DNA of 9,418 bases from a virus. Taxonomy: Duplodnaviria > Heunggongvirae > Uroviricota > Caudoviricetes. Below are positions 8,021 through 8,440 of the stretch, piece by piece. The stretch spans positions 1 to 9,418 of IMG/VR virus record IMGVR_UViG_2778261154_000013. One strand, given 5' to 3'. Made by a program: the position numbers and the translations under genes. Position 1 is the first letter of the stretch; each line of letters opens with the position of its first letter. A model generated the notes under the pieces. That model was not told the DNA's origin, did not search any database, and saw only the letters and a list, made by a program, of their open reading frames with translations.

Positions 8021-8131
8021 GGTGCTTGAGGCTGTCTGCCTCGGGCATGTCACTGTAAGGCAGACAGAGAAAAGCCCCAGTTAACATTACGCGTCCTGCA
8101 AGACGCTTAACATTAATCTGAGGCCCAATCT
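8021..8131 (+). promoter_or_regulatory. hok mRNA 5' leader with tac/ucb-like structured elements
   Basis: Hairpin GAGGCtgtctGCCTC (8028-8042) and long-range complement CTGTCTGCC (8032-8040)/GGCAGACAG (8060-8068), paralleling the plasmid R1 hok leader (CTTTCTGCC...GGCAGAAAG) as I recall it. Confidence 0.5.
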
Positions 8132-8140
8132 ATGTCTCAC
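8070..8140 (-). ncRNA. sok: Sok-like antisense RNA (approximate boundaries)
   Basis: Inferred from hok/sok architecture. Minus-strand promoter-like -35 TTGCCT (revcomp of 8170-8175), 17-nt spacer, -10 TAACCT (revcomp of 8147-8152); the transcript would be antisense to the mok SD/start region. Boundaries are not determined. Confidence 0.45.
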
Positions 8141-8344
8141 AAATGTAGGTTAGCCTCTTACGTGCCGAAAGGCAAGGAGAAGCAGGCTATGAAGCAGCAA
8201 AAGGCGATGTTAATCGCCCTGATCGTCATCTGTTTAACCGTCATTGTGACGGCACTGGTAACGAGGAAAGACCTCTGCGAGGTACGAATCCGAACCGGCC
8301 AGACGGAGGTCGCTGTCTTCGTAGACTACGAATCTAGAGAGTAA
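8132..8344 (+). CDS. mok: Mok-like reading frame (in-frame N-terminal extension of hok)
   Basis: 70-aa ORF starting MSHKCRLASYVPKGKEKQA and continuing in frame into hok, as in chromosomal mokC/hokC; upstream sequence resembles the R1 mok start region. Confidence 0.6.
   Translation: MSHKCRLASYVPKGKEKQAMKQQKAMLIALIVICLTVIVTALVTRKDLCEVRIRTGQTEVAVFVDYESRE
8189..8344 (+). CDS. hok: Hok/Gef family type I toxin (small membrane peptide)
   Basis: 51 aa, MKQQKAMLIALIVICLTVIVTALVTRKDLCEVRIRTGQTEVAVFVDYESRE, near-identical over most of its length to E. coli HokD/HokC as I recall them; SD AAGGAG 9 nt upstream. Confidence 0.9.
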   Translation: MKQQKAMLIALIVICLTVIVTALVTRKDLCEVRIRTGQTEVAVFVDYESRE

Positions 8345-8403
8345 GAGTGACCAGGCGGGAGAGTAATCTCCCGCCACCTTTGATGTGTCAGGCATCCTCA
8401 ACG

Positions 8404-8440
8404 CACCCGCACTTAACCCGTTTCGGCGGTTTTTTTTGTT
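8404..8440 (+). terminator. Putative hok mRNA 3' end (fbi-region hairpins plus T-run)
   Basis: T8 run at about 8430-8438 preceded by short GC stems (CCGC 8407-8410/GCGG 8425-8428); an upstream strong hairpin GGCGGGAGA(8353-8361)/TCTCCCGCC(8367-8375). Confidence 0.55.

Follow-up and report, generated by a model that had tools for sequence, protein, structure and literature searches.

Whether a hok-type locus carried by a prophage is a working type I toxin–antitoxin module or the remains of one, and what a working copy would do for the prophage, is the question raised by a 9,418-nucleotide (nt) stretch of DNA from a Caudoviricetes virus (IMG/VR record IMGVR_UViG_2778261154_000013, positions 1–9,418), which is referred to here as the window. 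The sequence, homology, predicted folds and conservation observed for positions 8008–8437 make it very probable that this region is an intact hok/mok/sok type I toxin–antitoxin cassette of the hokW/hokD (lambdoid-prophage) subfamily, working by the mechanism of that system. The system, the kind of place in which it lies and a near-identical locus that has been studied are already known, and the cassette is an ordinary copy.

Rfam family RF01794 ('sok') matches positions 8020–8194 of the plus strand over the full length of the model (positions 1–157 of 157; 118.4 bits, E = 3.5 × 10−27) and is the only Rfam family to reach its gathering score (59 for RF01794) anywhere in the window. A match on the plus strand is expected because the model describes the hok mRNA leader containing the Sok target. 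The open reading frame (ORF) listing contains two nested frames here, one of 70 codons (8132–8344) and one of 51 codons opened by an in-frame internal ATG at 8189. The 51-residue product of the inner frame, Hok (MKQQKAMLIALIVICLTVIVTALVTRKDLCEVRIRTGQTEVAVFVDYESRE), matches Pfam family HOK_GEF (PF01848; E = 4.3 × 10−23, 81 bits against a cut-off of 22) and PHROG 251, 'MokW-like host killing' (E = 1 × 10−32), corresponds to RefSeq entry WP_000813259.1 ('Hok/Gef family protein') and is identical to HokW at 49 of 51 residues and to K-12 HokD at 47 of 51. Members of the Hok/Gef family are small toxins of about 50 residues with an N-terminal transmembrane helix. RefSeq records only this coding sequence, with neither mok nor Sok nor any of the RNA elements, an annotation that the present analysis would amend (Table 1).

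The preliminary description had reported a complete hok-type locus at 8021–8440, with a structured leader, mok in frame with a 51-residue Hok, antisense-promoter-like elements for sok and a 3′ fold-back. All of these items were recovered, within an inferred unit of 8020–8437: the leader as the full-length RF01794 match, the nested frames as given above, a minus-strand promoter-like pair (−35 TTGCCT and −10 TAACCT, 17 nt apart) that is the same as in phage 933W, and pairing of 8396–8408 with 8020–8031 in the minimum-energy fold. Loss of the sok promoter or of the mok start in a proper alignment, named there as the mark of an inactive relic, is not observed among the 55 cassette sequences compared below (mok start in 54 of 55, sok −35 invariant, sok −10 89–100% conserved), and the check that it proposed for insertion sequence (IS) elements or inactivating mutations found the window cassette free of both IS and frameshift. 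Its statement that the family is known also holds, as even the hokW subfamily has been characterized experimentally (PMC8621323).

The ends of the Sok gene are transferred from the sokW annotation of 933W, where 8144–8191 of the window is found letter for letter. The sokW RNA is 71 nt in length and is transcribed from its own promoter (Takada et al., PMC8621323); mutation of its −10 element abolishes antitoxin activity and unmasks the toxicity of HokW, and growth is restored in part when sokW is provided in trans (PMC8621323). The Sok RNA predicted for the window begins with a 14 nt single-stranded 5′ tail, which leads into a long hairpin and a terminal UUUU (−29.2 kcal/mol, z = −5.3), and is complementary to the mok translation-initiation region. 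A consensus promoter scan was set aside as a test of the hok and sok promoters: it called neither, and the validated hexamers of R1 and sokW likewise fall below its threshold, for which reason the promoters were judged by conservation and homology.

Table 1. Features of the cassette and of its surroundings in the window (conservation refers to 55 distinct cassette sequences).
Feature	Position	Strand	Description and basis	Conservation
Putative hok promoter −10	8008–8013	+	TAAGAT; 6 nt upstream of inferred start G8020; aligned with TATGAT (R1-type locus) and TAGAAT (933W)	
Full-length hok mRNA, inferred	8020–8437	+	418 nt; Rfam start at 8020, homology block 8007/8018–8407/8441, fold z = −6.5; ends inferred	
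tac (translational activator) element	8020–8031	+	GGGUGCUUGAGG; mRNA 5′ end; pairs with 8396–8408 in full-length form and with 8072–8078 after 3′ truncation	98–100%
5′ leader hairpin	8032–8068	+	Rfam consensus structure; compensatory G-C to A-U changes among relatives (helix 2)	
Upstream complementary box	8072–8078	+	AAGCCCC; pairs with 5′ end once fbi is gone; truncated and nascent folds, Rfam structure	
Sok antisense RNA gene	8140→8070	−	About 71 nt; ends from 933W sokW misc_RNA annotation (933W locus 1559–1629, minus strand)	
Hypervariable patch	8125–8146		22 nt, discrete alleles; Sok 5′ tail, equivalent to mok spacer and mok codons 2–5	
mok ORF	8132–8344	+	70 codons; Shine–Dalgarno GAGG 8120–8123; in frame with hok, stop shared, none between	ATG 98–100% (start codon in 54/55)
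sok promoter −10	8152→8147	−	TAACCT; identical to 933W	89–100%
sok promoter −35	8175→8170	−	TTGCCT; overlaps hok Shine–Dalgarno; aligned with TTGCGC of R1-type locus	100%
hok toxin ORF	8189–8344	+	51 residues; Shine–Dalgarno AAGGAG 8174–8179; Pfam HOK_GEF	Shine–Dalgarno and ATG 96–100%
CUACGAA motif	8326–8332	+	Contains Tyr47 codon 8327–8329; candidate TadA adenosine-to-inosine (Tyr to Cys) site at A8328	
3′-UTR (untranslated region) hairpin	8354–8375	+	GGCGGGAGA-GUAA-UCUCCCGCC; fold; three pairs with compensatory changes (helix 15)	
fbi (fold-back inhibition) element	8396–8408	+	CCUCAACGCACCC; 12 bp with 8020–8031, C8402 bulged	90–100%; changes only G-U wobble or bulged base
3′ terminator-like hairpin	8418–8437	+	CCGU-UUCG-GCGG and U8; weaker than family consensus	
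DUF551 gene	7369–7734		Pfam/PHROG search	
27-residue hydrophobic ORF	7731–7814	+	MTWPEAFTTVGIAMAVALVVYSICRWG; ATG overlaps DUF551 stop (ATGA); absent from RefSeq annotation	
G+C hairpin between A-run and T-run	7819–7851		Bidirectional, intrinsic-terminator-like; −23 kcal/mol, z = −5.2 (terminator scan, fold)	
phrog_1813 ORF	8623–8835		Function unknown; PHROG search	
DUF1367 gene	8907 onward		PHROG label 'NinB/Orf'	

Borders, conservation and folding of the cassette

Scanned with the Hok protein, IMG/VR gave 80 loci, from which 55 distinct cassette sequences were used to assess the conservation of individual elements. For most of the 80 loci, homology to the window begins at 8007–8018 and ends at 8407–8441 with unrelated flanks on either side, and the same sharp borders within unrelated flanks are found in 933W, in the Rac prophage of E. 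coli 442/2 and in a phage-like plasmid, giving at least five flank contexts overall. These borders coincide with the ends of the unit, and the cassette can therefore be equated with the transcription unit; their sharpness in several contexts supports, as far as sequence comparison goes, a mobile cassette. The term 'moron' used in the preliminary description, which is also part of the PHROGs category of the hok family ('moron, auxiliary metabolic gene and host takeover'), is borne out in part: a discrete cassette, sharp homology borders and several flank contexts are present, but an empty site was not found by a joined-flank query of 5,426 E. coli genomes. Six genomes cover both flanks, and the one of these that was inspected (H101) spans 1201 nt and carries the cassette; a genome that matches the left flank only (H106) also carries hokD.

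The conserved elements are those on which control of the cassette would depend (Table 1), and the hok −10 hexamer is likewise invariant at T1, A2, A5 and T6 in all 55 sequences. The mok frame is in phase with hok in 48 cassettes and in another frame, owing to a 1 nt indel, in four; two further cassettes have a short mok and one has an ACG start. Because four relatives carry mok in another frame, it is the translation of mok rather than its sequence that appears to be conserved in this alignment. Inside the unit, the window departs from more than 85% of its relatives at just four positions, 8050 (in a loop), 8380, 8421 and 8430.

Folding of the whole hok mRNA gave z = −6.5, with none of 100 shuffled sequences as good. 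In folds of 8020–8437 the tac and fbi elements pair in both the minimum-energy and the centroid structure, corresponding to a closed form. An open form, in which 8020–8027 pairs with 8072–8078 as in the Rfam consensus structure, was obtained for RNAs ending at 8385 or 8390 and for nascent 5′ fragments. RNAs truncated at 8380 or 8395 folded differently, which makes the refolding into the open form supportive but not decisive. The pairings themselves are computed and correspond to the tac/fbi/upstream-box scheme known from the hok mRNA of plasmid R1; the element names are those used in the literature of the Gerdes laboratory.

Pair counts were made by scoring a 52-sequence alignment against the fold of the window itself. 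Pairs with changes on both sides number 11, compared with 4.9 ± 0.9 in shuffled alignments (none of 500 reaching the observed count) and with 1–4 in slid controls, and 96.8% of cells are paired; the derivation of the structure from one of the aligned sequences favours the percentage paired and affects the compensatory counts less. The compensatory changes cluster in three hairpins (5′, Sok-target and 3′-UTR) and include leader helices 2 and 4. For tac–fbi, 99.8% of cells are paired, with variation only as G-U wobbles or at the bulge.

Several sequences recovered in these scans depart from the usual pattern. In two IMG/VR loci (L028 and L029), an insertion of about 930 bp between the equivalents of 8125 and 8139 splits the cassette at the mok start; this is presumably an IS element that inactivates mok and the Sok target there. 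A record named 'Actinobacillus phage vB_Apl-pPE4' (PP818812.1, H1) holds an E. coli-type hok cassette that is 94% identical, and short contigs labelled Collinsella, Xanthomonas pisi and Haemophilus (L096, L097 and L106) contain the cassette leader by exact pattern match. Contamination or misassignment of the host is the likely explanation for all of these foreign labels.

Proposed control and role in the prophage

A mechanism can be proposed by homology with hok/sok of plasmid R1 and hokW–sokW of the prophage Sp5, in which the transcript ends, processing, toxicity and trigger are inferred. A weak promoter would yield a stable hok mRNA of 418 nt that is locked by the tac–fbi pairing and is neither translated nor bound by Sok. 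Slow trimming from the 3′ end would then remove fbi, allowing the 5′ end to pair with 8072–8078 and rendering the mok ribosome-binding region accessible. As long as it is supplied, the short-lived Sok RNA of about 71 nt would bind the mok region and block translation of mok and, through coupling, that of hok, the duplex being marked for RNase III. Once the supply of Sok stops, the 51-residue Hok would be made, enter the inner membrane and kill or lyse the cell.

Acceleration of host lysis and of phage release upon induction is tentatively ranked first among the roles that such a cassette might have, because no other role has been demonstrated for the 93%-identical hokW–sokW. In that system HokW is toxic and is neutralized by sokW, which has its own promoter (PMC8621323). 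On treatment with mitomycin C, RecA-dependent prophage induction is accompanied by the disappearance of sokW and the appearance of HokW, which is found in the inner membrane about 1 h before the endolysin; when hokW–sokW is deleted, growth arrest comes later and phage release falls by half (PMC8621323). The same study reported partial dependence on RNase III and Hfq and left open whether the smaller hokW RNAs match the truncated form of R1 (PMC8621323).

Several features of the window count against an intact cassette with such a role. At the −35 position of hok (7985–7990), TAGCGT matches poorly, and the hexamer falls outside the conserved block. Within the subfamily, the 52 aligned sequences show no compensatory covariation in tac–fbi, only one-sided G-U changes; compensatory support for this pairing comes solely from comparison with the R1-type locus. 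The substitutions C8421T and G8430T, both rare in the family, reduce the terminator stem from about −13 kcal/mol (consensus AACCCGCUUCGGCGGGUU) to about −4 kcal/mol (−3.8), leaving a 4 bp stem followed by a U-run lengthened to eight. Finally, hokW of 933W occupies another position in its prophage, so that the role linked to induction may not transfer. The weakened terminator is probably not disabling, since cassettes of the 933W type function with no such terminator at all (PMC8621323).

An active cassette could alternatively serve mainly in defence or maintenance, through abortive infection, phage exclusion or post-segregational killing, rather than mainly in lysis, a reading that is possible but somewhat less probable than the lysis role. 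R1 hok/sok on a high-copy plasmid lowers T4 plating by 42% (cited in PMC8621323). The many unrelated flanks, including that of a phage-like plasmid, would suit a selfish or addictive module. The genomic distribution is mixed in its bearing, as hok genes are about fourfold enriched in prophages but are not enriched near defence systems (bioRxiv 10.1101/2025.08.07.668861). Post-segregational killing, moreover, was not seen with native chromosomal hok loci (bioRxiv 10.1101/2025.08.07.668861), and in the sole direct experiment on a prophage copy the effect on phage release was positive (PMC8621323).

It is unlikely that the locus is intact yet physiologically silent, through weak transcription or control too tight for Hok ever to be released in nature, and persists only by hitch-hiking with mobile prophage DNA. 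The poor −35 element of hok, the lack of a promoter call and the weakened terminator would all fit such a locus, as would the report that native chromosomal hokA, hokB and hokC cause neither post-segregational nor rifampicin-induced killing (summarized in bioRxiv 10.1101/2025.08.07.668861), and the disrupted copies L028 and L029 show that loss is tolerated. However, the elements are 89–100% conserved in the 55 variants while the flanks and a patch in the Sok tail vary freely, a pattern pointing to purifying selection on function. Compensatory changes keep the helices intact, and the nearest relative works in its native prophage (PMC8621323). Least credible by far is that the locus is a chance resemblance, which on sequence evidence is excluded by the Rfam and Pfam E-values (3.5 × 10−27 and 4 × 10−23) and the 93% DNA identity to hokW–sokW, or a degraded relic with its regulatory parts lost like K-12 hokD, given that leader, mok start and sok promoter are all present here and that K-12 hokD has none of them and no RF01794 match.

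Sok-tail alleles and the Tyr47 motif

The allele patch in the Sok tail and the motif at Tyr47 are the only leads at this locus that merit further work. Within the patch (Table 1) the entropy rises to 2.0 bits, at 8137 and 8138, nearing that of the unalignable flanks, against values of 0 or close to it at most neighbouring positions. By a pattern scan of one genome per species, the cassette was found in Escherichia, Shigella, Kluyvera and Pseudocitrobacter. All five genomes with multiple copies (two or three each) carry a different patch allele in every co-resident copy. This co-residence was considered as support for distinct allele functions and rejected, as it is not significant: with about ten circulating alleles, an all-different set arises fairly frequently by chance, and five genomes are too few for significance. 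In locus L104 (Enterobacteriaceae MGYG-HGUT-00110, 808–1420) two hok-type leaders with different Sok-tail alleles are found on one strand, separated by about 560 bp, which looks like a tandem duplication of the cassette.

The motif CUACGAA at Tyr47 is identical to the 7 nt anticodon loop of E. coli tRNA-Arg(ACG) (argQ sequence) and is flanked by UAGA and UCUA (8322–8336). The core TACG is invariant, the R1-type locus included, and the full motif is CUACGAA in 31 of the 55 cassettes and UUACGAA in 21. TadA edits the equivalent tyrosine of K-12 hokD to cysteine (PMC5630033). Locally, the minimum-energy fold hides the site within a UUCGUA/UACGAA stem (z = 0.5), so that its exposure is ambiguous.

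A speculative explanation is that the patch alleles represent 'specificity groups' of prophage hok/sok systems, diversified so that Sok from one prophage would neither silence nor be titrated by the hok mRNA of another, in the sense of incompatibility or competition between prophages, and that, separately, TadA editing at Tyr47 might act as an added switch of the toxicity of this allele. The locus also gives an opening to ask whether the several hok copies present in most E. coli genomes fall into groups, set by their Sok-tail alleles, that do not cross-react.

Prophage setting and comparison with known hok loci

The cassette is located in the post-replication (nin-like) region of a lambdoid prophage of the Rac type, integrated at ttcA. 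Two E. coli genomes match the window closely, VL40 at 99.9% identity and FDAARGOS_944 at 99.3% (91% coverage), and the assignment to the Rac type follows from the VL40 region, which adjoins ttcA and carries intR/xisR. Upstream of hok the order is repressor/Cro-like genes, ydaT, ydaU, a DnaC-like gene, DUF977, an HNH gene and the DUF551 gene; downstream are a hypothetical gene, DUF1367, DUF1364 and DUF1133, then tRNAs, lysis genes and head genes. The DUF1133 homologue in the Rac 442/2 record is annotated as the antiterminator Q. The placement between a terminator and nin-type genes that had been suggested beforehand is broadly right, with the hairpin and U-run at 7819–7851 on one side and the DUF1367 gene labelled 'NinB/Orf' on the other. 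It had also been said that no relBE-like genes precede hok, in contrast to relBEF/hokD of Qin; this agrees with what was found, the DUF551 gene and the 27-residue ORF lying upstream here, whereas K-12 hokD is preceded by relBE and matches the window only over 8175–8435.

The 27-residue ORF gave no match in Pfam or PHROG searches, and in 933W, as in many IMG/VR loci, a homologue precedes the hok cassette by about 30 nt. In the window and a minority of its relatives, a 194 nt segment (7818–8011) that holds the terminator-like hairpin separates this ORF from the cassette; the segment is absent from 933W-type loci. The region downstream of the cassette (8440–8620) is AT-rich (32–33% G+C), and the pair of promoter-like sites that it carries on the minus strand (8510→8481 and 8563→8534) is no more than shuffled sequences give. 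The ORF at 8623–8835 was considered as a homologue of Rem (K-12 Qin and Rac 442/2) and rejected, showing no similarity to it and belonging instead to phrog_1813. Further upstream, positions 2409–3608 form an uninterrupted ORF of 399 codons where RefSeq has two partial YdaU pseudogene fragments (VL40 and FDAARGOS_944); this is possibly an intact variant of YdaU that contains an internal insertion.

The closest characterized relative is hokW–sokW of 933W/Sp5, with 93% DNA identity over 8012–8418. The sok −35, spacer and −10 and the hok Shine–Dalgarno sequence and start are identical, and both loci have a 51-residue Hok, a 70-codon in-frame mok, a 71 nt Sok, the same extended Sok-target hairpin and a homologous 27-residue ORF upstream; the 933W record annotates mokW, hokW and the sokW antisense RNA. 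The window differs in carrying another allele of the Sok 5′ tail and mok codons 2–5 (six of the first 19 Sok nucleotides differ), in the 194 extra nt, with their terminator, that separate the small ORF from the cassette, in its weak hairpin and U8 where 933W diverges directly after fbi, and in its prophage position and downstream genes.

Similarity to hok/mok/sok of plasmid R1, the founding member, is more distant, with no BLAST match between the window and the R1-type locus at E ≤ 1 × 10−5 and 44% identity between HokW and R1 Hok (PMC8621323). The order of the elements is nevertheless the same and mok is in frame in both, and the R1-type locus aligns with the window at the mok ATG, the hok −10, the sok hexamers, the hok Shine–Dalgarno sequence and start, and TACGAA. 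RF01794 scores 87 bits for the R1-type locus and 118 bits for the window and also matches 933W, Rac 442/2 and the plasmid copy. The 5′–3′ complementarity, GGCGCUU/AAGCGCC in R1 and GGGUGC-UUGAGG/CCUCAA-C-GCACCC in the window, is kept through two-sided changes. The window has 18 extra nt that form a G+C stem extending the Sok terminator/target hairpin, and it lies in a prophage, whereas R1 is a conjugative plasmid.

In K-12, hokD (relF) of the Qin prophage shares 92% DNA identity with the window over 8175–8435, including fbi and the terminator, and lies, like the window cassette, between early genes and a cluster that ends in a Q-type antiterminator. The match begins at 8175, at the hok Shine–Dalgarno sequence; the equivalent of 8012–8174, with the promoter, tac, the Sok gene, the mok start and the sok promoter, is missing and relE/relB are found there instead, and a search of the K-12 hokD locus with RF01794 gave no match. 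The downstream gene, rem, is not similar to the window ORF at 8623–8835.

The Rac prophage of E. coli 442/2 (MN652886) is of the same kind and holds its cassette in the same slot, upstream of DUF1367 (irsA), ybcO and q, with 90% identity over 8012–8441. It differs by a 1 nt indel that puts mok (68 codons) in another frame, by having rem in place of the phrog_1813 ORF after the cassette and by a terminator with the strong consensus stem. The copy annotated as hokD on the phage-like plasmid is 87% identical over 8017–8408. Among these loci, the window preserves without damage the ancestral form that K-12 hokD had until relBE took the place of its leader, and it offers a natural variant for comparative work, with another Sok-tail allele, a weaker terminator and another position in the prophage.

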